Positions 1 through 27,564 of a stretch of DNA of 34,410 bases are shown here, one piece after another. Position numbers and translations under genes: made by a program. Under the pieces are notes generated by a model. The model worked only from the letters and a program-made list of their open reading frames with translations, ran no database searches and had not been told where the DNA came from. This DNA comes from Cyanophora paradoxa CCMP329 (Eukaryota; Plantae; Glaucophyta): assembly GCA_004431415.1 (NCBI GenBank), contig QPMI01000380.1, positions 1 through 34,410 of the forward strand, given 5' to 3'. Each line of letters starts with the position of its first letter. The first letter of the stretch is position 1.

Positions 1-3000
1 AAATCACAGGGGTCCCCACCCACACGAAACAGCAGGCAGGGAGTGCTGGGATTCGCCAGAGCACCTTGGCTGGTTTGCATGATAGGGAAGGGTGTTCGTT
101 TTCTAGTTTCGAGGTTGGGTTCGGGGCTGCCCCCATCGCCCCCCCGCACAAAACAGCAGGCAGGGAGCACTGGGATTCGCCAGAGCACTCTAGCAGGTTT
201 GCATGATAGGGAGGGGTGTTAGTTCTCTAGTTTCAAGGTTGGGTTCGGGGCGGCCTGGATCGCCCCCCGAAATCTCACGTGGTGCCCACCCACACAAAAC
301 AGCAGGCAGGGAGCGCTGGGATTCGCCAGAGCACTCCCGCAGGTTCGCATGATAGGGAGGGGTGTTGGTTTTCTAGTTTCGAGGTTGGGTTTGGGGCTGC
401 CCCCATCGCCCCCCGAAATCTCACAGGGGTCCCACCCACACGAAACAGCAGGCAGGGAGCGCTGGGATTTGCCAGAGCACTCTGGCAGGTTTGCATGATA
501 GGAAGGGGTGTTAGTTTTCTAGTTTCGAGGTTGGGTTCGGGGTGGCCCCGATCGCCCCCCGAAATCTCACAGGGGTGCCCACCCACACGAAACAGCAGGC
601 AGGGAGCGCTGGGATTCGCCAGAGCACCTTGGCTGGTTTGCATGATAGGGAGGGGTGTTAGTTTTCTAGTTTCGAGGTTGGGTTCAGGGTGGCCCCCATC
701 GCCCCCCTAAATCTCACAGGGGTCCCCACCCACACAAAACAGCAGGAAGGGAGCGCTGGGATTCACCAGAGCACTCTGGCAGGTTTGCATGATAGGGAGG
801 GGTGTTAGTTTTCTAGTTTCGAGGTTGGGTTCGGGGCTGCCCCCATCGCCCCCTGAAATCTCACAGGGGTCCCACCCACACGAAACAGCTGGAAGGGAGC
901 GCTGGGATTCACCAGAGCACTCTGGCGGGTTTGCATGATAGGGAGGGGTGTTAGTTTTCTAGTTTTGAGGTTGTGTTCCGGGCGGCCCCGATCGACCCCC
1001 GAAATCTCACAGGGGTCCCCACCCACACAAAACAGCAGGCAGGGAGCGCTGGGATTCGCCAGAGCACTCCCGCAGGTTCGCATGATAGGGAGGGGTGTTA
1101 GTTTTCTAGTTTCGAGGTTGGGTTCGGGGCTGCCCCCATCGCCCCCCGAAATCTCACAGGGGTCCCCACCCACACAAAACAGCAGGCAGGGAGCGCTGGA
1201 ATTCGCCAGAGCACTCTGGCAGGTTTGCATGATAGGTAGGGGTGTTAGTTTTCTAGTTTCGAGGTTGGGTTCGGGGCGGCCCCGATCGACCCCCGAAATC
1301 TCACAGGGGTCCCCACTCACACGGAACAGCAGGCAGGGAGCGCTGGGATTCGCCAGAGCACCTTGGCTGGTTTGCATGATAGGGAGGGGTGTTAGTTTTC
1401 TAGTTTCAAGGTTGTGTTCCGGGCGGCCCCGATCGACCCCCGAAATCTCACAGGGGTGCCACCCACACAAAACAGCAGGAAGGGAGCGCTGGAATTCGCC
1501 AGAGCACTCTGGCAGGTCTGCATGATAGGGAGGGTGTTAGTTCTCTAGTTTCAAGGTTGGGTTCGGGGCTGCCCTCATCGCCCCCCGAAATCTCACAGGG
1601 GTCCCCACCCACACGAAACAGCTGGAAGGGAGCGCTGAGATTCGCCAGAGCACTCTGGCAGGTTTGTGTGATAGAGAGAGGTGTTAGTTCTCTAGTTTCA
1701 AGGTTGGGTTCGGGGCTGCCCCCATCGCCCCCCGAAATCTCACAGGGGTGCCCACCCACACGAAACAGCAGGCAGGGAGCGCTGGGATTGGCCAGAGCAC
1801 CTTGGCTGGTTTGCATGATAGGGAGGGGTGTTATTTTTCTAGTTTCAAGGTTGGGTTCGGGGCAGCTCCGATCGCCCCCCGAAATCTCACAGGGGTCCCC
1901 ACCCACACGAAACAGCAGGCAGGGAGCGCTGGGATTCGCCAGAGCACTCCCGCAGGTTCGCATGATAGGGAGGGGTGTTAGTTTTCTAGTTTTGAGGTTG
2001 GGTTTGGGGCTGCCCCCATCGCCCCCCGAAATCTCACAGGGGTCCCCACACACACAAAACAGCAGGCAGGGAGCGCTGGAATTCGCCAGAGCACTCTGGC
2101 AGGTTTGCATGATAGGGAGGGGTGTTAGTTTTCTTGTTTCGAGGTTCGGTGCAGGGCTGCCCTGATCGCCCCCAAAATCTCACAGGGGTGCCCACCCACA
2201 CGAAACAGCAGGCAGGGAGCGCTGGGATTCGCCAGAGCACCTTGGCTGGTTTGCATGATAGGGAAGGGTGTTCGTTTTCTAGTTTCGAGGTTGGGTTCGG
2301 GGCTGCCCCCATCGCCCCCTGAAATCTCACAGGGGTCCCCACCCACACGAAACAGCAGGCAGGGAGTGCTGGGATTCGCCAGAGCACTCTGGCAGGTTTG
2401 CATGATAGGGAGGGTGTTAGTTCTCTAGTTTCAAGGTTGGCTTCGGGGCTGCCCTCATCGCCCCCCCAAATCTCACAGGGGTCCCCACCCACACGAAACA
2501 GCTGGAAGGGAGCGCTGAGATTCGCCAGAGCACTCTGGCAGGTTTGCATGATAGGGAGGGGTGTTAGTTTTCTAGTTTCGAGGTTGGGTTCAGGGCTGCC
2601 CCCATCGCCCCCTGAAATCTCACAGGCATCCCCAGCCACACGAAACAGCAGGCAGGGAGCGCTGGGATTTGCAAGAGCACTCTGGCAGGTTTGCATGATA
2701 GGGAGGGGTGTTAGTTTTCTAGTTTCGAGGTTGGGTTCGGGGCTGCCCCCATAGCCCCCTGAAATCCCACAGGGGTCCCCACCCACACGAAACAGCAGGC
2801 AGGGAGCGCTGGGATTCGCCAGAGCACTCCCGCAGGTTTGCATGATAGGGAGGGGTGTTAGTTTTCTAGTTTCAAGGTTGGGTTTGGGGCTGCCCCCATC
2901 GCCCCCCGAAATCTCACAGGGGTCCCCACCCACACGAAACAGCAGGCAGGGAGCGCTGGGATTCACCAGAGCACTCCCGCAGGTTTGCATGATAGGTAGG

Positions 3001-5678
3001 GGTGTAAGTTTTCTAGTTTCGAGGTTGGGTTTGGGGCGGCCCCGATCGACCCCCGAAATCTCACAGGGGTGCCCACCCACAGGAAACAGCAGGCAGGGAG
3101 CACTGGGATTCGCCAGAGCACCTTGGCTGGTTTGCATGATAGGGAAGGGTGTTCGTTTTCTAGTTTCGAGGTTTGGTTCGGGGCTGCCCCCATCGCCCCC
3201 CGAAATCTCACAGGGGTCCCCACCCACACGAAACTGCAGGCCGGAAGCGCTGGGATTCGCCAGAGCACTCCCGCAGGTTCACATGATAGGGAGGGGTGTT
3301 AGTTTTCTAGTTTCGAGGTTGGGTTCCGGGCTGCCCCCATCGCCCCCCGAAATCTCACAGGGGTGCCACCCACACGAAACAGCAGGAAGGGAGCGCTGGA
3401 ATTCGCCAGAGCACTCTGGCAGGTTTGCATGATAGGGAGGGTGTTAGTTCTCTAGTTTCAAGGTTGGGTTCGGGGCTGCCCTCATCGCCCCCCGAAATGT
3501 CACAGGGGTCCCCACCCACACGAAACAGCTGGAAGGGAGGGCTGAGATTCGCCAGAGCACTCTGGCAGGTTTGTGTGATAGGGAGGGGTGTTAGTTCTCT
3601 AGTTTCAAGGTTGGGTTCGGGGCTGCCCCCATCGCCCCCCGAAATCTCACAGGCATCCCCAGCCACACGAAACAGCAGGCAGGGAGCGCTGGGATTCGCC
3701 AGAGCACCTTGGCTGGTTTGCATGATAGGGAGGGGTGTTATTTTTCTAGTTTCAAGGTTGGGTTCGGGGCGGCCCCGATCGACCCCCGAAATCTCACAGG
3801 GGTGCCCACCCACACGAAACAGCAGGCAGGGAGCGCTGGGATACGCCAGAGCACTCTGGCAGGTTTGCATGATAGGGAGGGGTGTTGGTTTTCTAGTTTC
3901 AAGGTTGGGTTTGGGCCTGCCCTGATTGCCCCGGAATTTTCACAGAAGTCCCCAGCCACACGAAACAGCAGGCGGGGAGCGCTGGGATTCACCAGAGCAC
4001 TCTGGCAGGTTTGCAGGATAGGGAGGGGTGTAAGTTTTCTAGTTTGGAGGTTGGATTCGGGGCGGCCCCGATCGACCCCCAAAATCTCACAGGCGTCCCC
4101 ACCCACAGGAAACTGCAGGCAGGGAGCACTGGGATTCGCCAGAGCATGATAGGGAGGGTGTTAGCTCTCTAGTTTCAAGGTTGGGTTCGGGGCTGCCATC
4201 ATCGCCCCCCGAAATCTCACATGGTCCCCACCCACATAAAAGAGCTGGAAGGGAGTGCTGGGATTCGCCAGAGCACTCTGGCAGGTTTGTGTGATAGGGA
4301 GGGGTGTTATTTTTCTAGTTTCGAGGTTGGGTTTGGGGCGGCCCCGATCGCCCCCCCAAATCTCACTGGGGTCCCCACCCACACGAAACTGCAGGCAGGG
4401 AGCGCTGGGATTCGCCAGAGCACCTTGGCTGGTTTGCATGATAGGGAGGGGTGTTATTTTTCCAGTTTCGAGGTTGGGTTCGGGGCGGCCCCAATCGCCC
4501 CCCGAAATCTCACAGGGGTCCCCACCCACACAAAACAGCAGGCAGGGAGCGCTGGAATTCGCCAGAGCACTCTGGCAGGTTTGTGTGATAGGGAGGGGTG
4601 TTATTTTTCTAGTTTCGAGGTTGGGTTTGGGGCGGCCCCGATCGCCCCCCCAAATCTCACTGGGGTCCCCACCCACACAAAACAGCAGGCAGGGAGCGCT
4701 GGGATTCGCCAGAGCACTCTAGCAGGTTTGCATGATAGGGAGGGGTGTTAGTTTCCTAGTTTCAAGGTTGCCCCCCGAAATCTCACAGGGGTCCCCACCC
4801 ACACGAAACAGCAGGCAGGGAGCGCTGGGATTCGCAGGAGCACTCTGGCAGGTTTGCATAATAGGGAGGGGTGTTAGCTTTTTAATTTCGAGGTTGGGTT
4901 CAGGGCTGCCCTGATTGCCCCCCGAAATCTCACAGGGGTCCCCACCCACACGAAACAGCAGGCAGGGAGTGCTGGGATTCGCCAGAGCACTCTGGCAGGT
5001 TTGCATGATAGGGAGGGGTGTTAGTTTTCTAGTTTCGGGGTTGGGTTTGGGGCTGCCCCCATCGCCCCCCAAAATCTCACAGGGGTCCCCACCCACACGA
5101 AACAGCAGGCAGGGAGCACTGGGATTCGCCAGAGCACTCTGGCAGGTTTGCATGATAGGGAGGGGTGTTAGTTTTCATGCTTTGAGGTTGGAGTCGGGGC
5201 TGCCCCCATTGCCCCCCGAAATCTCACAGGGGGTCCCCACCCACACGAAACAGCAGGCAGGGAGTGCTGGGATTCGCCAGAGCACTCTGGCAGGTTTGCA
5301 TGATAGGGAGGGGTGTTAGTTTTCTAGTTTCGAGGTTGGGTTCGGGGCTGCCCCAATCGCCCCCCGAAATCTCACAGGGGTCCCCACCCACACGAAACAG
5401 CAGGCAGGGGGCGCTGGGATTCGCCAGAGCACTCTGGCAGGTTTGCATGATAGGGAGGGGTGTTAGTTTCCTAGAATCGAGGTTGGGTTGGGGGCTGCCC
5501 CCATCGCCCCCCGAAATCTCACAGGGGTCCCCACCCACACGAAACAGCAGGCAGGGAGCGCTGGGATTCGCAAGAGCACTCTGGCAGGTTTGCATAATAG
5601 GGAGGGGTGTTAGTTTCCTAGAATCGAGGTTGGGTTGGGGGCTGCCCCCATCGCCCCCCGAAATCTCACAGGGGTCCC
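1..5678 (+). repeat. 147-bp tandem satellite, ~39 diverged monomers (runs off the window start)
   Basis: Unit GAAATCTCACAGGGGTCCCCACCCACACGAAACAGCAGGCAGGGAGCGCTGGGATTCGCCAGAGCACTCTGGCAGGTTTGCATGATAGGGAGGGGTGTTAGTTTTCTAGTTTCGAGGTTGGGTTCGGGGCTGCCCCCATCGCCCCCC. AAATC recurs at 416, 562, 709 (146-147 bp). The ORF track repeats every 49 aa. Confidence 0.98.
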
Positions 5679-5828
5679 AAAACTAGAAAACTAACACCCC
5701 TCCCTATCATGCAAACCTGCCAGAGTGCTCTGGCGAATCCCAGCGCTCCCTGCCTGCTGTTTCGTGTGGGTGGGGACCCCTGTGAGATTTCCGGGGGCAA
5801 TCGGGGCAGCCCCGAACCCAACCTCGAA
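5679..5828 (-). repeat. Single inverted monomer of the 147-bp satellite
   Basis: AAAACTAGAAAACTAACACCCC...CCCGAACCCAACCTCGAA is the reverse complement of almost exactly one monomer and directly abuts the forward array. Confidence 0.96.
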
Positions 5829-5901
5829 TGGATCCACTGTTTCCACCACCTGAATAGCCAACAGCCCCAGCTGGGATCCCTATTTTTCGTTTGGGAGGCA
5901 T
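5829..5901 (-). pseudogene. 5' part of a small basic/Gly-rich ORF (MPPKRKIGIPAGAVGYSGGGNSGSI) interrupted by a satellite monomer
   Basis: ATG at 5901 is preceded by AAAGATACA, similar to the ATPase leader. After 25 codons the frame enters satellite sequence (ORF track 5707..5901). Confidence 0.45.
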
Positions 5902-5910
5902 TGTATCTTT
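5899..5910 (-). promoter_or_regulatory. Leader motif AAAGATACA-ATG shared with the ATPase gene
   Basis: Minus strand TAATAAAGATACAATG here versus TAGAAAGATATACAACAATG at 6723-6742. Confidence 0.3.
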
Positions 5911-6020
5911 ATTAGAATGAGAGATAATTTTATAAACCGCGTTTATATCGCATCAATTTATTGCTATGGACTTGGCTTTTCACTTCTTTGGGGGCTTCCT
6001 CTTTTTCTGGTGGTTTCAGT

Positions 6021-6725
6021 TCATCTTTTTTTCTTTTTGGGCTTCCTGTGGAAGCGAGGAAAATCGAAATCTCCAACTAAATCGGCTTTATCAACATAGT
6101 AGCCCACATTATACTTGAAAGATGTATAAACAAGGAATTGGTATGAGTGGACATACTCTTCAAACAGTTTATAGAAATCTTCTTTTCGAGGAAAAGTTGA
6201 AAACTCCTCTGCAAATGCTTCCAGCTCTTTTTGATTGCTTGCACACACCATAATTTCGATATCACAATCACAGCGAATCACACTTGCAACCTTGCGCAGT
6301 TTTTGCGATATTGTAATGAGTGAGCAATTCACATGTCTTGATCTAACATACAGCATCCCCACTGTTTTATCTCGAGTTAAATCGAGCTGGTCATTTTCTA
6401 TCATATCCTCTAAAATAATCAGCATATGGTTAAGATCTTCTCCCCTCTCTCTTTTTTCCTCTCTTTCTTTAATGATCTTTGATACATATTGGGGATCCCA
6501 TGCACCCAGTTGAACAGTAGCAGCTTTATCCCAATAATGTGTAAATGAGGTTGCAGATATAATAAGTGTTGTATCAATCCTTTTGGCATCATGCAGCTGT
6601 TTCAAATAATATTTTACAGCTTCAGTCTTCCCACATCCTGATTTCCCAAGTATGAGTAGTCGAAAAGGGGGTTCTATCATTTCACCAGCATTGAATTCCT
6701 TCAGTTCAGAACTTGGTATAGTCAT
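6021..6725 (-). CDS. A32-like (FtsK/HerA superfamily) viral DNA-packaging ATPase
   Basis: Walker A PFRLLILGKSGCGKT, Walker B MLIILEDM, Arg-finger motif LYVRSRH, then SLITISQ and IR-x-D (typical A32 pattern GRH...hhhhQ...R-x-N). Compact 234 aa. The true C-terminus may extend to 5930 across a homopolymer indel. Confidence 0.88.
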   Translation of the reverse strand: MTIPSSELKEFNAGEMIEPPFRLLILGKSGCGKTEAVKYYLKQLHDAKRIDTTLIISATSFTHYWDKAATVQLGAWDPQYVSKIIKEREEKRERGEDLNHMLIILEDMIENDQLDLTRDKTVGMLYVRSRHVNCSLITISQKLRKVASVIRCDCDIEIMVCASNQKELEAFAEEFSTFPRKEDFYKLFEEYVHSYQFLVYTSFKYNVGYYVDKADLVGDFDFPRFHRKPKKKKR

Positions 6726-6789
6726 TGTTGTATATCTTTCTAAATAAAGACAGATAAAAATAATGCAGGGTGACTGAATATGGTAAGAT

Positions 6790-7371
6790 CTAAAGATTTA
6801 TACGATGTAATCCATCTTTGTCCAAAATTATAAACGAATGCATTAGAGCGCGAACATTAACATCGATTACCTTATCTGAAGGCATGTAGAGGGTGAGGAA
6901 GGAAGAAGAGGAATTTGTTAAATCAACATAACCAGACTGGGCAATATTTCGAATTGCCTTTTCTCCATCAAGGCAGAATGGGAGTCCTGAAAGGACATAT
7001 TTATCAACAACCTTATCCATGTTAGAGCATTTGAAGGCATCAGCAATTAGCTCAGCACCTTTGAGCAGTGGAATTGGCTCAGTGATTTGATCATGAGGCT
7101 TTGCAAAGACCCCGACCTTATAACTGACTGGAGAGGTGTACCTGGGGTATTTCAAGGGATCTAGATTTGATTTTGATAGTGGCAAGCGCTGAAAACGTGC
7201 TTGTACCTCGCCGGGCAATAGTGGGCCCCTATTCACCAGCATGTCATTTGTGCCAGATCGCACAGCAGCACAGCCTCGGAACAGTCTCAAACCGACTTCG
7301 TAATCAAATCTAGCTCCCTCGAGAACCCCCAACAGCATACTGAGGGGTGGTTGAAATATGGGCCCCGGGTT
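6790..7371 (-). pseudogene. 3' part of a probable double-jelly-roll major capsid protein gene (5' part lost, internal part amplified)
   Basis: The frame is open from 7371 to TAG at 6790 (Met at 7338). C-terminus LPFCLDGE...QSGYVDLTNSSSSFLTLY...VNVRALMHSFIILDKDG resembles the NCLDV-type MCP ending (YSFAL.PE..QPSG..NFSR...A.L.L...V.VYA.NYNVLRI..G). It lies 64 bp upstream of the packaging ATPase on the same strand. Confidence 0.55.
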
Positions 7372-10300
7372 TCAATATGGCTGACAGTGAGGATCTGAGC
7401 ACCCATGCATGCAGTGTTCATGATGATCATGATTTGATCATGAGGCTTTGCAAAGACCCCGACCTTATAACTGACTGGAGAGGTGTACCTGGGGTATTTC
7501 AAGGGATCTAGATTTGATTTTGATAGTGGGAAGCGCTGAAAGCGTGCTTGTACCTCGCAGGGCAATAGTGGGCCCCTATTCACCAGCACCAGATCGCAGA
7601 GCAGCACAGCCTCGGAACAGTCTCAAACCGACTTCATAATCAAATCTAGCTCCCTCGAGAACCCCCAACAGCATACTGAGGGGTGGTTGAAATATGGGCC
7701 CCGGGTTTCAATATGGCTGACAGTGAGGATCTGAGCACCCATGCATGCAGTGTTCATGATGATCATGATTTGATCATGAGGCTTTGCAAAGACCCCGACC
7801 TTATAACTGACTGGAGAGGTGTTTCTGGGGTATTTCAAGGGATCTAGATTTGATTTTGATAGTGGGAAGCGCTGAAAACGTGCTTGTACCTTGCTGGGCA
7901 ATAGTGGGCCCCTATTCACCAGCATGTCATTTGTGCCAGATCGCACAGCAGCACAGCCTCGGAACAGTCTCAAACCGACTTCATAATCAAATCTAGCTCC
8001 CTCGAGAACCCCCAACAGCATACTGAGGGGTGGTTGAAATATGGGCCCCGGGTTTCAATATGGCTGACAGTGAGGATCTGAGCATGAAGTGTTCATGATG
8101 ATCATGATTTGATCATGAGGCTTTGCAACGACCCCGACCTTATAACTGACTGGAGAGGTGTACCTGGGGTATTTCAAGGGATCTAGATTTGATTTTGATA
8201 GTGGCAAGCGCTGAAAGCGTGCTTGTACCTCGCGGGGCAATAGTGGGCCCCTATTCACCAGCACCAGATCGCAGAGCAGCACAGCCTCGGAACAGTCTCA
8301 AACCGACTTCATAATCAAATCTAGCTCCCTCGAGAACCCCCAACAGCATACTGAGGGGTGGTTGAAATATGGGCCCCGGGTTTCAATATGGCTGACAGTG
8401 AGGATCTGAGCACCCATGCATGCAGTGTTCATGATGATCATGATTTGATCATGAGGCTTTGCAAAGACCCCGACCTTATAACTGACTGGAGAGGTGTACC
8501 TGGGGTATTTCAAGGGATCTAGATTTGATTTTGATAGTGGCAAGCGCTGAAAACGTGCTTGTACCTCGCCGGGCAATAGTGGGCCCCTATTCACCAGCAT
8601 GTCATTTGTGCCAGATCGCACAGCAGCACAGCCTCGGAACAGTCTCAAACCGACTTCGTAATCAAATCTAGCTCCCTCGAGAACCCCCAACAGCATACTG
8701 AGGGGTGGTTGAAATATGGGCCCCGGGTTTCAATATGGCTGACAGTGAGGATCTGAGCACCCATGCATGCAGTGTTCATGATGATCATGATTTGATCATG
8801 AGGCTTTGCAAAGACCCCGACCTTATAACTGACTGGAGAGGTGTACCTGGGGTATTTCAAAGGATCTAGATTTGATTTTGATAGTGGGAAGCGCTGAAAG
8901 CGTGCTTGTACCTCGCCGGGCAATAGTGGGCCCCTATTCACCAGCATGTCATTTGTGCCAGATCGCACAGCAGCACAGACTCGGAACAGTCTTAAACCGA
9001 CTTCGTAATCAAATCTAGCTCCCTCGAGAACCCCCAACAGCATACTGAGGGGTGGTTGAAATATGGGCCCCGGGTTTCAATATGGCTGACAGTGAGGATC
9101 TGAGCATGCAGTGTTCATGATGATCATGATTTGATCATGAGGCTTTGCAACGACCCCGACCTTATAACTGACTGGAGAGGTGTACCTGGGGTATTTCAAG
9201 GGATCTAGATTTGATTTTGATAGTGGCAAGCGCTGAAAGCGTGCTTGTACCTCGCCGGGCAATAGTGGGCCCCTATTCACCAGCATGTCATTTGTGCCAG
9301 ATCGCACAGCAGCACAGCCTCGGAACAGTCTCAAACCGACTTCATAATCACATCTAGCTCCCTCGAGAACCCCCAACAGCATACTGAGGGGTGGTTGAAA
9401 TATGGGCCCCGGGTTTCAATATGGCTGACAGTGAGGATCTGAGCACCCATGCATGCAGTGTTCATGATGATCATGATTTGATCATGAGGCTTTGCAAAGA
9501 CCCCGACCTTATAACTGACTGGAGAGGTGTTTCTGGGGTATTTCAAGGGATCTAGATTTGATTTTGATAGTGGGAAGCGCTGAAAACGTGCTTGTACCTT
9601 GCTGGGCAATAGTGGGCCCCTATTCACCAGCATGTCATTTGTGCTAGATCGCACAGCAGCACAGACTCGGAACAGTCTCAAACCGACTTCATAATCAAAT
9701 CTAGCTCCCTCGAGAACCCCCAACAGCATACTGAGGGGTGGTTGAAATATGGGCCCCGGGTTTCAATATGGCTGACAGTGAGGATCTGAGCACCCATGCA
9801 TGCAGTGTTCATGACATGATTTGATCATGAGGCTTTGCAAAGACCCCGACCTTATAACTGACTGGAGAGGTGTTTCTGGGGTATTTCAAGGGATCTAGAT
9901 TTGAAAATGATAGTGGCAAGCGCTGAAAGCGTGCTTGTACCTCGCCGGGCAATAGTGGGCCCCTATTCACCAGCATGTCAGTTGTGCCAGATCGCACAGC
10001 AGCACAGCCTCGGAACAGTCTCAAACCGACTTCATAATCAAATCTAGCTCCCTCGAGAACCCCCAACAGCATACTGAGGGGTGGTTGAAATATGGGCCCC
10101 GGGTTTCAATATGGCTGACAGTGAGGATCTGAGCACCCATGCATGCAGTGTTCAATGATCATGATTTGATCATGAGGCTTTGCAAAGACCCCGACCTTAT
10201 AACTGACTGGAGAGGTGTACCTGGGGTATTTCAAGGGATCTAGATTTGAAAATGATAGTGGCAAGCGCTGAAAGCGTGCTTGTACCTCGCCGGGCAATAG

Positions 10301-13300
10301 TGGGCCCCTATTCACCAGCATGTCATTTGTGCCAGATCGCAGAGCAGCACAGCCTCGGAACAGTCTTAAACCGACTTCGTAATCAAATCTAGCTCCCTCG
10401 AGAACCCCCAACAGCATACTGAGGGGTGGTTGAAATATGGGCCCCGGGTTTCAATATGGCTGACAGTGAGGATCTGAGCATGCAGTGTTCATGATGATCA
10501 TGATTTGATCATGAGGCTTTGCAACGACCCCGACCTTATAACTGACTGGAGAGGTGTACCTGGGGTATTTCAAGGGATCTAGATTTGAAAATGATAGTGG
10601 CAAGCGCTGAAAGCGTGCTTGTACCTCGCCGGGCAATAGTGGGCCCCTATTCACCAGCATGTCAGTTGTGCCAGATCGCACAGCAGCACAGCCTCGGAAC
10701 AGTCTCAAACCGACTTCATAATCACATCTAGCTCCCTCGAGAACCCCCAACAGCATACTGAGGGGTGGTTGAAATATGGGCCCCGGGTTTCAATATGGCT
10801 GACAGTGAGGATCTGAGCACCCATGCATGCAGTGTTCATGACATGATTTGATCATGAGGCTTTGCAAAGACCCCGACCTTATAACTGACTGGAGAGGTGT
10901 TTCTGGGGTATTTCAAGGGATCTAGATTTGAAAATGATAGTGGCAAGCGCTGAAAGCGTGCTTGTACCTCGCCGGGCAATAGTGGGCCCCTATTCACCAG
11001 CATGTCAGTTGTGCCAGATCGCACAGCAGCACAGCCTCGGAACAGTCTCAAACCGACTTCATAATCAAATCTAGCTCCCTCGAGAACCCCCAACAGCATA
11101 CTGAGGGGTGGTTGAAATATGGGCCCCGGGTTTCAATATGGCTGACAGTGAGGATCTGAGCACCCATGCATGCAGTGTTCAATGATCATGATTTGATCAT
11201 GAGGCTTTGCAAAGACCCCGACCTTATAACTGACTGGAGAGGTGTACCTGGGGTATTTCAAGGGATCTAGATTTGATTTTGATAGTGGCAAGCGCTGAAA
11301 GCGTGCTTGTACCTCGCCGGGCAATAGTGGGCCCCTATTCACCAGCATGTCATTTGTGCCAGATCGCAGAGCAGCACAGCCTCGGAACAGTCTCAAACCG
11401 ACTTCGTAATCAAATCTAGCTCCCTCGAGAACCCCCAACAGCATACTGAGGGGTGGTTGAAATATGGGCCCCGGGTTTCAATATGGCTGACAGTGAGGAT
11501 CTGAGCATGAAGTGTTCATGATGATCATGATTTGATCATGAGGCTTTGCAACGACCCCGACCTTATGACTGACTGGAGAGGTGTACCTGGGGTATTTCAA
11601 GGGATCTAGATTTGATTTTGATAGTGGCAAGCGCTGAAAACGTGCTTGTACCTCGCCGAACAATAGTGGGCCCCTATTCACCAGCATGTCATTTGTGCCA
11701 GATCGCACAGCAGCACAGCCTCGGAACAGTCTCAAACCGACTTCATAATCAAATCTAGCTCCCTCGAGAACCCCCAACAGCATACTGAGGGGTGGTTGAA
11801 ATATGGGCCCCGGGTTTCAATATGGCTGACAGTGAGGATCTGAGCACCCATGCATGCAGTGTTCATGATGATCATGATTTGATCATGAGGCTTTGCAAAG
11901 ACCCCGACCTTATAACTGACTGGAGAGGTGTACCTGGGGTATTTCAAGGGATCTAGATTTGATTTTGATAGTGGCAAGCGCTGAAAACGTGCTTGTACCT
12001 CGCCGGGCAATAGTGGGCCCCTATTCACCAGCATGTCATTTGTGCCAGATCGCACGGCAGCACAGCCTCGGAACAGTCTTAAACCGACTTCATAAGCAAA
12101 TCTAGCTCCCTCGAGAACCCCCAACAGCATACTGAGGGGTCGTTGAAATATGGGCCCCGGGTTTCAATATGGCTGACAGTGAGGATCTGAGCACCCATGC
12201 ATGCAGTGTTCATGATGATCATGATTTGATCATGAGGCTTTGCAAAGACCCCGACCTTATAACTGACTGGAGAGGTGTACCTGGGGTATTTCAAGGGATC
12301 TAGATTTGATTTTGATAGTGGCAAGCGCTGAAAACGTGCTTGTACCTCGCCGGGCAATAGTGGGCCCCTATTCACCAGCATGTCATTTGTGCCAGATCGC
12401 ACAGCAGCACAGCCTTCGAACAGTCTCAAACCGACTTCATAATCAAATCTAGCTCCCTCGAGAACCCCCAACAGCATACTGAGGGGTGGTTGAAATATGG
12501 GCCCCGGGTTTCAATATGGCTGACAGTGAGGATCTGAGCACCCATGCATTCAGTGTTCATGATGATCATGATTTGATCATGAGGCTTTGCAAAGACCCCG
12601 ACCTTATAACTGACTGGAGAGGTGTACCTGGGGTATTTCAAGGGATCTAGATTTGATTTTGATAGTGGCAAGCGCTGAAAGCGTGCTTGTACCTCGCCGG
12701 GCAATAGTGGGCCCCTATTCACCAGCATGTCATTTGTGCCAGATCGCACAGCAGCACAGCCTCGGAACAGTCTCAAACCGACTTCATAATCAAATCTAGC
12801 TCCCTCGAGAACCCCCAACAGCATACTGAGGGGTGGTTGAAATATGGGCCCGGGTTTCAATATGGCTGACAGTGAGGATCTGAGCACCCATGCATGCAGT
12901 GTTCATGATGATCATGATTTGATCATGAGGCTTTGCAAAGACCCCGACCTTATAACTGACTGGAGAGGTGTACCTGGGGTATTTCAAGGGATCTAGATTT
13001 GATTTTGATAGTGGCAAGCGCTGAAACGTGCTTGTACCTCGCCGGGCAATAGTGGGCCCCTATTCACCAGCATGTCATTTGTGCCAGATCGCACAGCAGC
13101 ACAGCCTCGGAACAGTCTTAAACCGACTTCATAAGCAAATCTAGCTCCCTCGAGAACCCCCAACAGCATACTGAGGGGTGGTTGAAATATGGGCCCCGGG
13201 TTTCAATATGGCTGACAGTGAGGATCTGAGCACCCATGCATGCAGTGTTCATGATGATCATGATTTGATCATGAGGCTTTGCAAAGACCCCGACCTTATA

Positions 13301-16300
13301 ACTGACTGGAGAGGTGTACCTGGGGTATTTCAAGGGATCTAGATTTGATTTTGATAGTGGCAAGCGCTGAAAGCGTGCTTGTACCTCGCCGGGCAATAGT
13401 GGGCCCCTATTCACCAGCATGTCATTTGTGCCAGATCGCACAGCAGCACAGCCTTCGAACAGTCTCAAACCGACTTCATAATCAAATCTAGCTCCCTCGA
13501 GAACCCCCAACAGCATACTGAGGGGTGGTTGAAATATGGGCCCCGGGTTTCAATATGGCTGACAGTGAGGATCTGAGCACCCATGCATTCAGTGTTCATG
13601 ATGATCATGATTTGATCATGAGGCTTTGCAAAGACCCCGACCTTATAACTGACTGGAGAGGTGTACCTGGGGTATTTCAAGGGATCTAGATTTGATTTTG
13701 ATAGTGGCAAGCGCTGAAAGCGCGCTTGTACCTCGCCGGGCAGTAGTGGGCCCCTATACACCAGCATGTCATTTGTGCCAGATTGCAGAGCAGCACAGCC
13801 TCGGAACAGTCTCAAACCGACTTCATAATCAAATCTAGCTCCCTCGAGAACCCCCAACAGCATACTGAGGGGTGGTTGAAATATGGGCCCCGGGTTTCAA
13901 TATGGCTGACAGTGAGGATCTGAGCACCCATGCATGCAGTGTTCATGATGATCATGATTTGATCATGAGGCTTTGCAAAGACCCCGACCTTATAACTGAC
14001 TGGAGAGGTGTACCTGGGGTATTTCAAGGGATCTAGATTTGATTTTGATAGTGGCAAGCGCTGAAAGCGTGCTTGTACCTCGCCGGGCAATAGTGGGCCC
14101 CTATTCACCAGCATGTCATTTGTGCCAGATCGCACAGCAGCACAGCCTCGGAACAGTCTCAAACCGACTTCATAATCAAATCTAGCTCCCTCGAGAACCC
14201 CCAACAGCATACTGAGGGGTGGTTGAAATATGGGCCCCGGGTTTCAATATGGCTGACAGTGAGGATCTGAGCATGAAGTGTTCATGATGATCATGATTTG
14301 ATCATGAGGCTTTGCAACGACCCCGACCTTATAACTGACTGGAGAGGTGTACCTGGGGTATTTCAAAGGATCTAGATTTGATTTTGATAGTGGCAAGCGC
14401 TGAAAACGTGCTTGTACCTCGCCGAACAATAGTGGGCCCCTATTCACCAGCATGTCATTTGTGCCAGATCGCACAGCAGCACAGCCTCGGAACAGTCTCA
14501 AACCGACTTCATAATCAAATCTAGCTCCCTCGAGAACCCCCAACAGCATACTGAGGGGTGGTTGAAATATGGGCCCCGGGTTTCAATATGGCTGACAGTG
14601 AGGATCTGAGCACCCATGCATGCAGTGTTCATGATGATCATGATTTGATCATGAGGCTTTGCAAAGACCCCGACCTTATAACTGACTGGAGAGGTGTACC
14701 TGGGGTATTTCAAGGGATCTAGATTTGATTTTGATAGTGGCAAGCGCTGAAAGCGTGCTTGTACCTCGCCGGGCAATAGTGGGCCCCTATTCACCAGCAT
14801 GTCATTTGTGCCAGATCGCACAGCAGCACAGCCTCGGAACAGTCTCAAACCGACTTCATAATCAAATCTAGCTCCCTCGAGAACCCCCAACAGCATACTG
14901 AGGGGTGGTTGAAATATGGGCCCCGGGTTCCAATATGGCTGACAGTGAGGATCTGAGCACCCATGCATGCAGTGTTCATGATGATCATGATTTGATCATG
15001 AGGCTTTGCAAAGACCCCGACCTTATAACTGACTGGAGAGGTGTACCTGGGGTATTTCAAGGGATCTAGATTTGATTTTGATAGTGGCAAGCGCTGAAAA
15101 CGTGCTTGTACCTCGCCGGGCAATAGTGGGCCCCTATTCACCAGCATGTCATTTGTGCCAGATCGCACAGCAGCACAGCCTCGGAACAGTCTTAAACCGA
15201 CTTCATAAGCAAATCTAGCTCCCTCGAGAACCCCCAACAGCATACTGAGGGGTGGTTGAAATATGGGCCCCGGGTTTCAATATGGCTGACAGTGAGGATC
15301 TGAGCACCCATGCATGCAGTGTTCATGATGATCATGATTTGATCATGAGGCTTTGCAAAGACCCGACCTTATAACTGACTGGAGAGGTGTACCTGGGGTA
15401 TTTCAAGGGATCTAGATTTGATTTTGATAGTGGCAAGCGCTGAAAGCGTGCTTGTACCTCGCCGGCAATAGTGGGCCCTATTCACCAGCATGTCATTTGT
15501 GCCAGATCGCACAGCAGCACAGCCTTCGAACAGTCTCAAACCGACTTCATAATCAAATCTAGCTCCCTCGAGAACCCCAACAGCATACTGAGGGGTGGTT
15601 GAAATATGGGCCCGGGTTTCAATATGGCTGACAGTGAGGATCTGAGCACCCATGCATTCAGTGTTCATGATGATCATGATTTGATCATGAGGCTTTGCAA
15701 AGACCCCGACCTTATAACTGACTGGAGAGGTGTACCTGGGTATTTCAAGGGATCTAGATTTGATTTTGATAGTGGCAAGCGCTGAAAGCGCGCTTGTACC
15801 TCGCCGGCAATAGTGGGCCCTATACACCAGCATGTCATTTGTGCCAGATTGCAGAGCAGCACAGCTCGGAACAGTCTCAAACCGACTTCATAATCAAATC
15901 TAGCTCCCTCGAGAACCCCAACAGCATACTGAGGGTGGTTGAAATATGGGCCCGGGTTTCAATATGGCTGACAGTGAGGATCTGAGCACCCATGCATGCA
16001 GTGTTCATGATGATCATGATTTGATCATGAGGCTTTGCAAAGACCCGACCTTATAACTGACTGGAGAGGTGTACCTGGGGTATTTCAAGGGATCTAGATT
16101 TGATTTTGATAGTGGCAAGCGCTGAAAGCGTGCTTGTACCTCGCCGGGCAATAGTGGGCCCCTATTCACCAGCATGTCAGTTGTGCCAGATCGCACAGCA
16201 GCACAGCCTCGGAACAGTCTCAAACCGACTTCATAATCAAATCTAGCTCCCTCGAGAACCCCCAACAGCATACTGAGGGGTGGTTGAAATATGGGCCCCG

Positions 16301-19300
16301 GGTTTCAATATGGCTGACAGTGAGGATCTGAGCATGAAGTGTTCATGATGATCATGATTTGATCATGAGGCTTTGCAACGACCCCGACCTTATAACTGAC
16401 TGGAGAGGTGTACCTGGGGTATTTCAAAGGATCTAGATTTGATTTTGATAGTGGCAAGCGCTGAAAACGTGCTTGTACCTCGCCGAACAATAGTGGGCCC
16501 CTATTCACCAGCATGTCATTTGTGCCAGATCGCACAGCAGCACAGCCTCGGAACAGTCTCAAACCGACTTCATAATCAAATCTAGCTCCCTCGAGAACCC
16601 CCAACAGCATACTGAGGGGTGGTTGAAATATGGGCCCCGGGTTTCAATATGGCTGACAGTGAGGATCTGAGCACCCATGCATGCAGTGTTCATGATGATC
16701 ATGATTTGATCATGAGGCTTTGCAAAGACCCCGACCTTATAACTGACTGGAGAGGTGTACCTGGGGTATTTCAAGGGATCTAGATTTGATTTTGATAGTG
16801 GCAAGCGCTGAAAGCGTGCTTGTACCTCGCCGGGCAATAGTGGGCCCCTATTCACCAGCATGTCATTTGTGCCAGATCGCACGGCAGCACAGCCTCGGAA
16901 CAGTCTCAAACCGACTTCATAAGCAAATCTAGCTCCCTCGAGAACCCCCAACAGCATACTGAGGGGTCGTTGAAATATGGGCCCCGGGTTTCAATATGGC
17001 TGACAGTGAGGATCTGAGCACCCATGCATGCAGTGTTCATGATGATCATGATTTGATCATGAGGCTTTGCAAAGACCCCGACCTTATAACTGACTGGAGA
17101 GGTGTACCTGGGGTATTTCAAGGGATCTAGATTTGATTTTGATAGTGGCAAGCGCTGAAAGCGTGCTTGTACCTCGCCGGGCAATAGTGGGCCCCTATTC
17201 ACCAGCATGTCATTTGTGCCAGATCGCACAGCAGCACAGCCTCGGAACAGTCTCAAACCGACTTCATAATCAAATCTAGCTCCCTCGAGAACCCCAACAG
17301 CATACTGAGGGGTGGTTGAAATATGGGCCCCGGGTTTCAATATGGCTGACAGTGAGGATCTGAGCACCCATGCATCAGTGTTCATGATGATCATGATTTG
17401 ATCATGAGGCTTTGCAAAGACCCCGACCTTATAACTGACTGGAGAGGTGTACCTGGGTATTTCAAGGGATCTAGATTTGATTTTGATAGTGGCAAGCGCT
17501 GAAAGCGTGCTTGTACCTCGCCGGGCAATAGTGGGCCCCTATCACCAGCATGTCATTTGTGCCAGATCGCAGAGCAGCACAGCCTCGAACAGTCTCAAAC
17601 CGACTTCATAATCAAATCTAGCTCCCTCGAGAACCCCAACAGCATACTGAGGGTGGTTGAAATATGGGCCCGGGTTTCAATATGGCTGACAGTGAGGATC
17701 TGAGCACCCATGCATGCAGTGTTCATGATGATCATGATTTGATCATGAGGCTTTGCAAAGACCCCGACCTTATAACTGACTGGAGAGGTGTACCTGGGGT
17801 ATTTCAAGGGATCTAGATTTGATTTTGATAGTGGCAAGCGCTGAAAGCGTGCTTGTACCTCGCCGGGCAATAGTGGGCCCCTATTCACCAGCATGTCATT
17901 TGTGCCAGATCGCACAGCAGCACAGCCTCGGAACAGTCTCAAACCGACTTCATAATCAAATCTAGCTCCCTCGAGAACCCCCAACAGCATACTGAGGGGT
18001 GGTTGAAATATGGGCCCCGGGTTTCAATATGGCTGACAGTGAGGATCTGAGCACCCATGCATGCAGTGTTCATGATGATCATGATTTGATCATGAGGCTT
18101 TGCAAAGACCCCGACCTTATAACTGACTGGAGAGGTGTACCTGGGGTATTTCAAGGGATCTAGATTTGATTTTGATAGTGGCAAGCGCTGAAAGCGTGCT
18201 TGTACCTCGCCGGGCAATAGTGGGCCCCTATTCACCAGCATGTCATTTGTGCCAGATCGCACAGCAGCACAGCCTCGGAACAGTCTCAAACCGACTTCTA
18301 ATCAAATCTAGCTCCCTCGAGAACCCCAAAGCATACTGAGGGGTGGTTGAAATATGGGCCCGGGTTTCAATATGGCTGACAGTGAGGATCTGAGCATGAA
18401 GTGTTCATGATGATCATGATTTGATCATGAGGCTTTGCAAGACCCCGACCTTATAACTGACTGGAGAGGTGTACCTGGGGTATTTCAAGGGATCTAGATT
18501 TGATTTTGATAGTGGCAAGCGCTGAAACGTGCTTGTACCTCGCCGGGCAATAGTGGGCCCCTATTCACCAGCATGTCATTTGTGCCAGATCGCACAGCAG
18601 CACAGCCTCGGAACAGTCTCAAACCGACTTCATAATCAAATCTAGCTCCCTCGAGAACCCCCAACAGCATACTGAGGGGTGGTTGAAATATGGGCCCCGG
18701 GTTTCAATATGGCTGACAGTGAGGATCTGAGCACCCATGCATGCAGTGTTCATGATGATCATGATTTGATCATGAGGCTTTGCAAAGACCCCGACCTTAT
18801 AACTGACTGGAGAGGTGTACCTGGGGTATTTCAAGGGATCTAGATTTGATTTGATAGTGGCAAGCGCTGAAAGCGTGCTTGTACCTCGCCGGGCAATAGT
18901 GGGCCCCTATTCACCAGCATGTCATTTGTGCCAGATCGCACAGCAGCACAGCCTCGGAACAGTCTCAAACCGACTTCATAATCAAATCTAGCTCCCTCGA
19001 GAACCCCAACAGCATACTGAGGGTGTTGAAATATGGGCCCGGGTTTCAATATGGCTGACAGTGAGGATCTGAGCACCCATGCATGCAGTGTTCATGATGA
19101 TCATGATTTGATCATGAGGCTTTGCAAAGACCCCGACCTTATAACTGACTGGAGAGGTGTACCTGGGTATTTCAAGGGATCTAGATTTGATTTTGATAGT
19201 GGCAAGCGCTGAAAGCGTGCTTGTACCTCGCCGGGCAATAGTGGGCCCCTATTCACCAGCATGTCATTTGTGCCAGATCGCACAGCAGCACAGCCTCGGA

Positions 19301-22300
19301 ACAGTCTCAAACCGACTTCATAATCAAATCTAGCTCCCTCGAGAACCCCCAACAGCATACTGAGGGGTGGTTGAAATATGGGCCCCGGGTTTCAATATGG
19401 CTGACAGTGAGGATCTGAGCACCCATGCATGCAGTGTTCATGATGATCATGATTTGATCATGAGGCTTTGCAAAGACCCCGACCTTATAACTGACTGGAG
19501 AGGTGTACCTGGGGTATTTCAAGGGATCTAGATTTGATTTTGATAGTGGCAAGCGCTGAAAGCGTGCTTGTACCTCGCCGGGCAATAGTGGGCCCCTATA
19601 CACCAGCATGTCATTTGTGCCAGATCGCAGAGCAGCACAGCCTCGGAACAGTCTCAAACCGACTTCATAATCAAATCTAGCTCCCTCGAGAACCCCCAAC
19701 AGCATACTGAGGGGTGGTTGAAATATGGGCCCCGGGTTTCAATATGGCTGACAGTGAGGATCTGAGCACCCATGCATGCAGTGTTCATGATGATCATGAT
19801 TTGATCATGAGGCTTTGCAAAGACCCCGACCTTATAACTGACTGGAGAGGTGTACCTGGGGTATTTCAAGGGATCTAGATTTGATTTTGATAGTGGCAAG
19901 CGCTGAAAGCGTGCTTGTACCTCGCCGGGCAATAGTGGGCCCCTATTCACCAGCATGTCATTTGTGCCAGATCGCACAGCAGCACAGCCTCGGAACAGTC
20001 TCAAACCGACTTCATAATCAAATCTAGCTCCCTCGAGAACCCCAACAGCATACTGAGGGGTGGTTGAAATATGGGCCCCGGGTTTCAATATGGCTGACAG
20101 TGAGGATCTGAGCACCCATGCATGCAGTGTTCATGATGATCATGATTTGATCATGAGGCTTTGCAAAGACCCCGACCTTATAACTGACTGGAGAGGTGTA
20201 CCTGGGGTATTTCAAAGGATCTAGATTTGATTTTGATAGTGGCAAGCGCTGAAAGCGTGCTTGTACCTCGCCGGGCAATAGTGGGCCCCTATTCACCAGC
20301 ATGTCATTTGTGCCAGATCGCACAGCAGCACAGCCTCGGAACAGTCTCAAACCGACTTCGTAATCAAATCTAGCTCCCTCGAGAACCCCCAATAGCATAC
20401 TGAGGGGTGGTTGAAATATGGGCCCCGGGTTTCAATATGGCTGACAGTGAGGATCTGAGCACCCATGCATGCAGTGTTCATGATGATCATGATTTGATCA
20501 TGAGGCTTTGCAAAGACCCCGACCTTATAACTGACTGGAGAGGTGTACCTGGGGTATTTCAAGGGATCTAGATTTGATTTTGATAGTGGCAAGCGCTGAA
20601 AGCGTGCTTGTACCTCGCCGGGCAATAGTGGGCCCCTATTCACCAGCATGTCATTTGTGCCAGATCGCACAGCAGCACAGCCTCGGAACAGTCTTAAACC
20701 GACTTCATAAGCAAATCTAGCTCCCTCGAGAACCCCCAACAGCATACTGAGGGGTGGTTGAAATATGGGCCCCGGGTTTCAATATGGCTGACAGTGAGGA
20801 TCTGAGCACCCATGCATGCAGTGTTCATGATGATCATGATTTGATCATGAGGCTTTGCAAAGACCCCGACCTTATAACTGACTGGAGAGGTGTACCTGGG
20901 GTATTTCAAGGGATCTAGATTTGATTTCGATAGTGGCAAGCGCTGAAAGCGTGCTTGTACCTCGCCGGGCAATAGTGGGCCCCTATTCACCAGCATGTCA
21001 TTTGTGCCAGATCGCACAGCAGCACAGCCTCGGAACAGTCTCAAACCGACTTCGTAATCAAATGTAGCTCCCTCGAGAACCCCCAACAGCACACTGAGGG
21101 GTGGTTGAAATATGGGCCCCGGGTTTCAATATGGCTGACAGTGAGGATCTGAGCACCCATGCATGCAGTGTTCATGATGATCATGATTTGATCATGAGGC
21201 TTTGCAAAGACCCCGACCTTATAACTGACTGGAGAGGTGTACCTGGGGTATTTCAAGGGATCTAGATTTGATTTTGATAGTGGCAAGCGCTGAAAGCGTG
21301 CTTGTACCTCGCCGGGCAATAGTGGGCCCCTATTCACCAGCATGTCATTTGTGCCAGATCGCACGGCAGCACAGCCTCGGAACAGTCTCAAACCGACTTC
21401 ATAATCAAATGTAGCTCCCTCGAGAACCCCCAACAGCACACTGAGGGGTGGTTGAAATATGGGCCCCGGGTTCCAATATGGCTGACAGTGAGGATCTGAG
21501 CACCCATGCATGCAGTGTTCATGATGATCATGATTTGATCATGAGGCTTTGCAAAGACCCCGACCTTATAACTGACTGGAGAGGTGTACCTGGGGTATTT
21601 CAAGGGATCTAGATTTGATTTTGATAGTGGCAAGCGCTGAAAACGTGCTTGTACCTCGCCGGGCAATAGTGGGCCCCTATTCACCAGCATGTCATTTGTG
21701 CCAGATCGCACAGCAGCACAGCCTCGGAACAGTCTCAAACCGACTTCATAATCAAATCTAGCTCCCTCGAGAACCCCCAACAGCATACTGAGGGGTGGTT
21801 GAAATATGGGCCCCGGGTTCCAATATGGCTGACAGTGAGGATCTGAGCACCCATGCATGCAGTGTTCATGATGATCATGATTTGATCATGAGGCTTTGCA
21901 AAGACCCCGACCTTATAACTGACTGGAGAGGTGTACCTGGGGTATTTCAAGGGATCTAGATTTGATTTTGATAGTGGCAAGCGCTGAAAGCGTGCTTGTA
22001 CCTCGCCGGGCAATAGTGGGCCCCTATTCACCAGCATGTCATTTGTGCCAGATCGCACAGCAGCACAGCCTCGGAACAGTCTCAAACCGACTTCGTAATC
22101 AAATCTAGCTCCCTCGAGAACCCCCAATAGCATACTGAGGGGTGGTTGAAATATGGGCCCCGGGTTTCAATATGGCTGACAGTGAGGATCTGAGCACCCA
22201 TGCATGCAGTGTTCATGATGATCATGATTTGATCATGAGGCTTTGCAAAGACCCCGACCTTATAACTGACTGGAGAGGTGTACCTGGGGTATTTCAAGGG

Positions 22301-25300: not shown

Positions 25301-25454
25301 GGCCCCGGGTTTCAATATGGCTGACAGTGAGGATCTGAGCACCCATGCATGCAGTGTTCATGATGATCATGATTTGATCATGAGGCTTTGCAAAGACCCC
25401 GACCTTATAACTGACTGGAGAGGTGTACCTGGGGTATTTCAAGGGATCTAGATT
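7083..25454. repeat. 347-bp head-to-tail tandem array, ~54 copies, derived from the capsid-like coding sequence
   Basis: TGATTTGATCATGAGG recurs at 7083 and 7430 (347 bp) and onward. ORF starts step by 347 (8696, 9043; 11783, 12130, 12477; 20398, 20745, 21092). The terminal copy reads in frame into unique coding sequence (KPHDQI|TEPIPLL). Confidence 0.98.
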
Positions 25455-26311
25455 CCGCCCCGTCCCGTCCCGCGAGCCGCGCCTCCGCCCCGCCCCACGA
25501 GCCCTGATGCCGCCCGCTGCGCCTCCGCCCCCGCCGGCGAGCTGCGCCGCCGCCCGCCGCGCCTCTGCCCGCCCAGCCAGCCTCGCGCGCGCCTCCACGC
25601 CACCGCCGCCCCGTCCGGCGCGCCGCGCCGCCGCCCGCCGCGCCTTCGCCCCGCCCGGCGAGCCGCGCCGCCGCCCGCCGCGCCTCCGCCCCGCCCGGCG
25701 CGCCTCGCCCGGCGACTCCTTGCCTCCGCGGCCCTGCCCGGCGTGCCGCGCCGCCGCCCGCCGCGCCTCTGCCCCGCCCGGAGCGCCTCGCCCGGCGCCT
25801 CCGCGCCTCCGCCGCCCCGCCCGGCGCGCCACGCCGCGCCCGCCGCGCCTCCGCCCCGCCCGGCGCGCCTCGGCCGGCTCCTCCGCGCCTCTGCCGCCCT
25901 GCCCGGCGTGCCGCGCCGCCGCCCGCCGCGCCTCTGCCCCGCCCGGCGCGCCTCGCCCGGCGCCTCCGCGCCTCCGCCGCCCACCCGGCGCGCCACGCCG
26001 CCGCCGCCGCGCCTCCGCCCCGCCCGGCGCGCCTCGGCCGGCTCCTCCGCGCCTCTGCCGCCCCGCCGGCGCGCCGCGCCGCCGCCGCCGCGCCTCCGCC
26101 CCGCCCGGCGAGGCGCGCCGCGCGCCGCCACCCGCCGGCTGGGGGCGTGGTAGTTCTCTGCGCCGGAGGTGCAGGGAGCTGCTGCCACAGGCGGGGCGCT
26201 GGGAGTTTGACACGATGGCGCTCGACGAGGCCACCCAGCGCCGCGCCCTCGCGTCCGCCCGCCTCGCCCCGTCGCGCCCCTCGCCCGCCCCGAGGCTCCC
26301 CACCTCTCCAC
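25455..26311. repeat. Extremely GC-rich low-complexity block with an internal 165-bp duplication
   Basis: Almost only C and G up to ~26140, with a recurrent CGCCGCGCCTC(C/T)GCCCCGCCCGGCG module. GCCCTGCCCGGCGTGCCGCG starts at both 25731 and 25896. Confidence 0.85.
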
Positions 26312-27032
26312 GGACCCCTGTCCTGTGAGATTTCAGGGGGCGATGGGGGCAGGCCCAAACACAACCTTGAAACTAGAAAACCAAACCCCTCCCTATCATG
26401 CAAACCTGCCAGAGTGCTCTGGCGAATCCCAGCGCTCCCTGCCTGCTGTTTCGTGTGGGTGGGGACCCCTGTGAAATTTCGGGGGGCGGTAGGGGCCACC
26501 CCGAACCCAACCTTGAAACTAGAAAACTAACACCCCTCCCTATCATGCAAACCTGCCAGAGTGCTCTGGCGGATCCCAGCGCTCCCCGCCTGCTGTTTCG
26601 TGTGGGTGGGGACCCCTGTGAGATTTCGGGGGGCGATGGGGGCAGCCCCGCACCCAACCTTGAAACTAAAAAACTAACACCCCTTCCAATCATGCAAACC
26701 TGCCAGAGTGCTCTGGCGGATCCCAGCACTCCCTGCCTGCTGTTTCGTGTGGGGGGGGCGATGGGGGCAGCCCCGAACCCAACCTCGAAACTAGAAAACT
26801 CACACCCCTCCCCATCATGCAAACCTGCCAGAGTGCTCCGGTGAATCCAAGCGCTCCCCGCCTGCTGTTTCGTGTGGGTGGGGACCCCTGTGAGATTTCG
26901 GGGGGCGATCGGGGCAGCCCCAAACCCAACCTCGAAACTAGAAAACTCACACCCCTCCCCATCATGCAAACCTGCCAGAGTGCTCTGGCGGATCCCAGTA
27001 CTCCCTGCCTGCTGTTTCGTGTGGGTGGGGAC
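26312..27032 (-). repeat. ~5 inverted monomers of the 147-bp satellite
   Basis: Reverse-complement monomers from GGACCCCTGTCCTGTGAGATTT to GTGGGTGGGGAC. One monomer has an internal deletion near 26750. Confidence 0.96.
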
Positions 27033-27111
27033 CGTCGCCAATCAGATTAACCGAGTCTCCAACCGTCAACCGTAAAAAAAGTCAAAACAGTCAAGTCGTG
27101 GACCGTCAACA

Positions 27112-27166
27112 TTCGACTTCGAGTTAAACGAAATGAACGTTTCGACTTCGAGTTAAACGAAATGAA
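27112..27166. repeat. Perfect 26-bp direct repeat (2 copies, 29-bp period) in the AT-rich spacer
   Basis: TTCGACTTCGAGTTAAACGAAATGAA at 27112-27137 and 27141-27166. Confidence 0.9.
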
Positions 27167-27205
27167 TAAAAACGAAAAACAAAAAAATAAAAAAATTGAA
27201 AATTT

Positions 27206-27538: not shown

Positions 27539-27564
27539 TTCCTACTATACGGATATATAATATT

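Follow-up and report, generated by a model that had tools for sequence, protein, structure and literature searches.

A decayed capsid and ATPase gene fragment between satellite arrays, probably from an endogenous Polinton-like virus family of Cyanophora

Introduction

In small double-stranded DNA (dsDNA) viruses, a double jelly-roll protein forms the shell and an A32 ATPase is the motor that packages the DNA. A contig of Cyanophora paradoxa appears to carry genes for both next to each other, which raises the question of whether the locus holds the assembly genes of a virus that has so far escaped description, or what is left of something else. The preliminary description of the contig favoured the former: a compact module of a capsid gene, an A32-like ATPase gene and a small basic open reading frame (ORF), with unusual ATPase motifs that might mark a distinct lineage. 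Here, we analyse the whole stretch of 34,410 nt (the window).

We find that the locus is a broken copy from an endogenous family that has been catalogued yet is unnamed and unplaced, and not a new intact virus. The piece is decayed, measures 1.25 kb and probably derives from a multi-copy family of endogenous Polinton-like viruses (PLVs) of a Cyanophora genome.

Results

The viral piece and the surrounding satellites

The window consists mostly of tandem repeats, as detected with TRF and with blastn of the repeat units; the preliminary description does not mention this. Only positions 5829–7082 are unique within the window, and this stretch is flanked by two tandem-repeat arrays. It forms the viral piece of about 1.25 kb, in which the 3' end of a capsid gene, an A32 ATPase gene and a cut third frame follow each other, all on the minus strand. 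Both ends of the piece coincide with satellite boundaries. The GC content is 0.37–0.39 in the two main viral genes, whereas the arrays have values of about 0.5 and 0.59. The features are as follows.

16–5677, plus strand: 147-bp satellite array on the left flank (TRF period 147; 39 unit matches in plus orientation)
5683–5828, minus strand: one 147-bp satellite unit in inverted orientation (the blastn match between junction and array stops at 5828; 96–97% identity)
5829–5901, minus strand: initial 24 codons of what may be a third viral gene (ATG at 5901; putative gene)
5930–6034, minus strand: C-terminal tail of the ATPase, in another frame than the body (22 of 33 residues shared with positions 228–260 of the relative P0001)
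6021–6725, minus strand: A32-like (FtsK-HerA) DNA-packaging ATPase, 234 codons to a premature stop (Pfam Pox_A32)
6726–6789, minus strand: spacer of 64 bases from the capsid stop to the ATPase start
6790–7083, minus strand: last 97 codons of the major capsid protein gene (63 of 99 residues identical to residues 358–456 of the relative P0007)
7083–25454, plus strand: 347-bp satellite array (53 of 56 matches span at least 300 nt)

The first copy of the 347-bp satellite is followed by 44 copies up to position 22571 that are 95.4–100% alike to it (median 98.6). Beyond these, the copies at 22572–25369 carry many small deletions (77–97% identity) and resemble a poorly polished long-read stretch. The satellite also has diverged subfamilies: in contigs of two organisms (A and B), units are joined in tandem with different letters at the junction. 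Further blocks of the 147-bp satellite lie at 26322–27028 and 27662–34410. At 5760–5806, within the inverted 147-bp unit, the summed contig depth reaches 0.8–1.3 million in two runs, a depth that does not equal copy number; judged by this depth, the 147-bp satellite, which is about one nucleosome long, is probably a major satellite of the genome. Rfam had no match anywhere in the window, the 147-bp satellite included, and our literature search returned no description of this satellite.

Two other regions interrupt the arrays. Positions 25456–26321 are very GC-rich, with nested repeats of 20, 40, 83 and 165 bp and a low-complexity frame of 273 amino acids that has no significant Pfam match. A second AT-rich island at 27031–27664 lies between satellite blocks of opposite orientation; it contains an intact ORF of 110 amino acids (27206–27538, minus strand), in which Pfam recognises DUF5710 twice (E 3.2e-31), and a perfect direct repeat of 26 nt at 27112 and 27141, and may be another viral scrap. 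Both AT-rich islands outside the satellites lie no more than one unit away from a point where the 147-bp array changes orientation (5677–5828 and 26322–27664).

The capsid gene

The capsid frame (6790–7371, 193 codons) is a chimera of satellite and capsid end. Its only full-length relative is P0007, a C. paradoxa gene model of 456 amino acids, and the homology is restricted to residues 98–193 of the frame (window 7080–6793; 63 of 99 positions identical, 64%). The remnant thus amounts to about a fifth of the protein. The first 96 codons (7084–7371) are the terminal copy of the 347-bp satellite. As the capsid homology starts at the satellite boundary, we conclude that the 5' half of the ORF is false. 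We also considered the satellite as the upstream part of the capsid gene and rejected this: across six frames it showed no similarity to P0007, with 77–192 of 200 shuffled sequences scoring as high, and an alignment anchored at the junction scored 0. The capsid ORF of the preliminary description therefore holds for its last 97 codons, whereas about half of it is satellite.

Compared to 1.84 billion representative sequences, the capsid frame had four matches: P0007 (E 3e-29) and three bacterial-type TPR proteins (P0008–P0010). The latter match the satellite part of the frame at E 2e-5 to 2e-4, and we take them as chance. A profile search of the fragment had been proposed earlier; this yields no Pfam family, and it is the larger scan that finds P0007. 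The frame likewise had no match in PHROGs or among PDB sequences and no usable match in the Atlas, and a word search gave no longer relative. Pfam contains models of capsids of nucleocytoplasmic large DNA viruses (NCLDVs); even with these included, neither P0007 nor the capsid frame matched any family at E values up to 1. For P0007, no NCLDV capsid was matched among PDB sequences.

The link to a capsid comes from the published catalogue of protist endogenous viruses (PMC10120064; Bellas et al. 2023). P0007 agrees in contig name and length with row 106 of its Table S2, and the displayed sequence is alike by eye; this row is given as a major capsid protein with an HHpred result of 98.47% to an iridovirus major capsid protein. 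In row 107, a stretch of 24 residues is identical, by eye, to residues 97–120 of the capsid frame. All six Cyanophora capsids in the table have NCLDV capsids as their best HHpred matches. The putative capsid identity and the predicted double jelly-roll fold of our fragment rest on this published result for its homologue P0007. Our own structure models are poor, with a mean pLDDT of 31 for the capsid frame and 33 for P0007 (single-sequence and two-row input). Searched with Foldseek, the low-confidence P0007 model (pLDDT 33) matched an adintovirus capsid at E 1.9e-5 and PBCV-1 capsids at E 0.03–0.08; in the VIA fold search, the same low-confidence model reached a best Z of 4.3, with capsids mixed among carbohydrate-binding domains. 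We regard these fold matches as suggestive at most. Several contigs diverge from the window at 6784, beside the capsid stop, and may represent diverged capsid variants ahead of related ATPase genes.

The ATPase gene

The ATPase frame (6725–6021) matches Pfam Pox_A32 with 46.3 bits (cut-off 22.8, E 4.9e-12), and every other Pfam family remains below its own cut-off. The eight Atlas matches listed are all viral clusters at 0.98, mostly Pox_A32, and all of them are commonest in Nucleocytoviricota. The earlier view that the ATPase is viral and not cellular is thus borne out. Searches of PDB sequences returned weak P-loop matches only. Among 5.8 billion proteins, we found two relatives by a single-sequence search and six by a profile search; as these searches depend on shared words, relatives may escape them. 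Three of the relatives are close (P0001 with 60%, P0002 and P0003 with 40% identity each) and also score above the Pox_A32 cut-off; the other three have 25–31% identity over 38–65% of the length (E about 1e-6). With three close ATPases and one capsid homologue, the piece belongs to a very isolated lineage, in line with the preliminary description.

The preliminary description had noted ED in place of DD in Walker B and SRH in place of GRH. Both are present in the window (ED at 6416–6405, SRH at 6344–6333), yet all six homologues carry DD and GRH. The window copy alone has Glu for the first Walker B Asp and Ser for the Gly of GRH, whereas all seven aligned rows, the window copy included, share the second Asp of Walker B and the Arg-His. 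Since the usual residues occur in six of six homologues, ED and SRH are, as far as these sequences go, traits of this copy or its subfamily and not a lineage marker. We take Walker A (ATPase residues 27–34), the acidic pair of Walker B and the arginine finger to have their customary roles. The general mechanism of such motifs in FtsK-type packaging ATPases is treated in parts of PMC7617512.

The relative P0001 has 261 amino acids, and its last 33 residues match window 6034–5936 in another frame (22 of 33 identical). Because this tail sits in another frame and has no start codon of its own, we place a break in the gene within or near an A/T run at 6021–6035, where aligned contigs also disagree with the window. 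The break is possibly a true mutation and possibly an assembly error. In a tree of the seven ATPase rows, the window and P0001 group together with support 99/99; the tree has three long branches and contains no labelled references. The end branch of the window copy is 0.49, compared to 0.16 for its sister P0001.

The third frame

The third frame starts with an ATG at 5901, 28 bases past the stop of the ATPase tail. After 24 codons it hits the inverted 147-bp unit at 5828/5829 and runs on in the satellite to 5707. The small basic ORF noted earlier is thus cut by satellite, and it is basic in its first six residues only. Pfam gave no match for it. In one contig of depth 1273, the alignment begins at 5827 and is accompanied by 222 further letters that do not resemble the satellite; other copies therefore continue where the window copy is cut. 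Among the contigs listed, none bridges the 5828/5829 junction or the 7083 junction.

Copies of the piece and their divergence

Parts of 5829–7082 occur in 20 of the 24 listed runs (19 of organism A and one of organism B), with none of these runs holding more than 0.40 of the sampled words. In two DNA runs of one organism, 199 and 303 contigs align to the piece and cover all 30 bins. Sorted by identity, the first run has 33 contigs at 99% or more, 47 at 95–99%, 52 at 90–95% and 67 below 90%; the corresponding numbers in the second are 71, 90, 64 and 78. Where these contigs differ in the ATPase, 25 of the 37 differences fall on third codon positions (p = 2e-5; listed differences only, with one place in the frame-break run left out). 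As the listed differences concentrate at third positions, they point to purifying selection while the copies diverged, an estimate from sequence that describes the divergence between copies and not the state of the window copy.

Table S4 of PMC10120064 gives 366 capsid hits in C. paradoxa, 272 in cluster 21 and 94 in cluster 29; no hit lies outside these two MMPC clusters, neither of which is labelled virophage or Maverick-Polinton there. Both are marked 'new' and, by header count, have no group name. The claim of an undescribed virus hence fails, as the capsid family is already in Tables S2 and S4 of that study, albeit unnamed. Pattern scans of viral contigs and metagenome contigs, which are insensitive, gave no related locus, and phage records gave no match.

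Concerning the state of the remnant, CpG observed/expected ratios, taken from short stretches, are 0.43–0.53 in the viral piece and both satellites, whereas two islands elsewhere in the window have 1.2. This depletion fits the CpG methylation of repeats and virus-derived genes reported for C. paradoxa in parts of PMC12344493. The remnant is likely methylated and silent. No RNA run was among the listed runs that match 5829–7082; two runs that we guess to be RNA contributed 7 and 11 short contigs, which have no bearing on expression.

Discussion

Origin of the remnant

The pair of a capsid gene beside an A32 ATPase gene is that of a small dsDNA virus, as the preliminary description had it, but the frames are broken and do not form a compact intact module. 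The common orientation and the short spacers (64 and 28 bases) also stand, although none of the three ORFs is whole. The remnant can neither make a particle nor encode a whole capsid.

The shell of the parent virus would have been built by the double jelly-roll protein, and its DNA pumped in by the A32 ATPase, a ring-shaped motor whose arginine finger acts in trans. The family would have spread as integrating viruses of about 14–40 kb under purifying selection, a size given for protist endogenous viruses in PMC10120064. One copy may have landed in or beside satellite DNA. The two arrays would then have trimmed it, through the joining of broken ends or through unequal exchange, so that the capsid gene lost about four fifths of its length and the third gene most of its own. 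That the satellite unit is open in the capsid frame, and so fakes a longer ORF, would be a coincidence. Against such a coincidence, shuffling shows an open frame of this kind to be somewhat unusual (p about 0.01).

The window lacks an integrase, a replication gene, a minor capsid gene and terminal repeats, and the membership in the PLVs is therefore borrowed from papers: C. paradoxa elements from such loci are treated as PLVs in parts of PMC12220804. Our piece shares several features with PLVs (Aquintoviricetes and unplaced groups), namely the adjacent capsid and A32 ATPase genes with short spacers and no introns, an AT content above that of the flanks, and many diverged copies per genome. It differs in lacking the integrase, the replication gene and the terminal repeats within the window, and our searches found none of the named PLV groups to be close to it in sequence; beyond the three close ATPases, the best matches have 25–31% identity. 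The closest described system is the pair of MMPC clusters 21 and 29, with a capsid 64% identical to row 106 of Table S2 and an endogenous, multi-copy occurrence, whereas the window copy is a 1.25-kb remnant between satellites. In PMC10120064, as far as available, these clusters have no group name, ATPase analysis or discussion.

Alternative explanations

The piece could instead come from an endogenous giant virus (Nucleocytoviricota) or from a Mriyavirus-like small relative rather than from an ordinary PLV. The taxonomy of the eight listed Atlas clusters and the NCLDV capsids that are the best HHpred matches of the six Cyanophora capsids (PMC10120064, Table S2) would fit such an origin, as would the giant-virus insertions in C. 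paradoxa reported in parts of PMC12344493 and the existence of PLV-sized groups with NCLDV-related capsid and ATPase (bioRxiv 10.64898/2026.06.19.733378, in part). However, the same preprint notes that IMG/VR files small viruses of this kind as Nucleocytoviricota, which makes the Atlas labels weak. P0007 has no Pfam family at E values up to 1 and no NCLDV capsid in PDB, and the one Foldseek match under E 0.001 is an adintovirus capsid, found with a low-confidence model. The hundreds of capsid hits and the 64-base spacer would also fit small integrating viruses better, and we consider this origin unlikely. We regard it as similarly improbable that the viral genes are real while the frame break and the satellite joins stem from errors of a long-read assembly in which near-identical copies were merged. 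The array at 22572–25369 is full of small deletions, false frameshifts are often found in such regions according to parts of PMC10120064, the contigs of four runs (X1, X6, X2 and X4) never show the letter of the window at 6028, and no junction-bridging contig is among those listed. Yet the satellite copies beside the 7083 junction are clean and 95–100% alike, and short contigs seldom bridge repeats, so that their silence proves nothing. Moreover, one run matches 6523–6663 without any difference, and at least part of the variant therefore exists.

A different reading of the 7083 junction has the 347-bp satellite arise from a coding stretch of this virus family, such as a diverged capsid paralogue or another viral gene, in which case the junction would be ancestral and no break would have happened. 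The capsid frame stays open through 96 codons of the unit, at the p value given above, the longest open run in three units has p 0.03, its GC by codon position (0.59/0.44/0.49) follows the same order as in the viral genes, and tandem joints of related units occur in runs of both organism A and organism B. Set against this are the lack of similarity to P0007, whether in six frames or anchored at the junction, the lack of a Pfam match in four satellite frames, library matches of the satellite part that are confined to the three TPR proteins taken as chance, and a GC content of 0.51 in the satellite compared to 0.37–0.39 in the viral genes; we think that a viral birth of the satellite is quite improbable, slightly more so than either of the two explanations above. 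By far the least credible explanation is that the three genes form an intact morphogenesis module, from an undescribed small virus whose ATPase has motifs of its own. Three co-oriented frames with short spacers and few relatives would look like this, but all three frames are broken, the usual motifs are found in six of six homologues, and the capsid family is already tabulated (PMC10120064, Tables S2 and S4). The intactness of the module is refuted by a capsid ORF that is half satellite, a third frame cut by satellite and a homology to P0007 that is partial. The decayed piece of an endogenous PLV family thus remains our preferred reading.

Relation to small relatives of giant viruses

Small viruses with an NCLDV-like capsid and ATPase have been described in several groups (bioRxiv 10.64898/2026.06.19.733378, in part). 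With the Mriyavirus-, Zoravirus- and Zephyrvirus-like relatives covered there, the window shares an NCLDV-like capsid and ATPase in profile searches; the markers given for Mriyavirus-like viruses are Mriya48, an HUH endonuclease and VLTF2/3. The main text of the preprint, as far as available, does not mention Cyanophora or glaucophytes. Since such small groups are already described, a placement of our family on the NCLDV side would still make it a new branch of a known kind.

Our literature search returned no paper devoted to these Cyanophora elements; there are brief mentions in parts of PMC12220804, PMC8502044 and PMC12344493. It likewise returned no paper that links satellite DNA, endogenous viral elements and capsids. 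In the main text of PMC6704402, which presents the improved assembly of C. paradoxa, as far as available, the words virus, viral, satellite and tandem do not occur.

Implications

The locus itself is a fossil and of little weight; its use is that of a pointer. Through it, capsid clusters that had previously only been counted are connected with an A32 ATPase and a gene order. The locus also illustrates that read-through into satellites and frame breaks in homopolymers can fake gene models and 'unusual motifs' in regions of this kind.

Glaucophytes branch deep among the relatives of plants. It is conceivable, though we hold it doubtful at present, that they carry, in hundreds of copies, their own deep and unnamed lineage of small integrating viruses, with a capsid and a packaging ATPase near the NCLDV side and no sampled free relative, and that at this locus a major satellite may derive from one of its genes. 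Should the family fall outside the named groups in a labelled tree, the small dsDNA viruses would gain a deep branch linked to a host, with a bearing on the origin of giant viruses.
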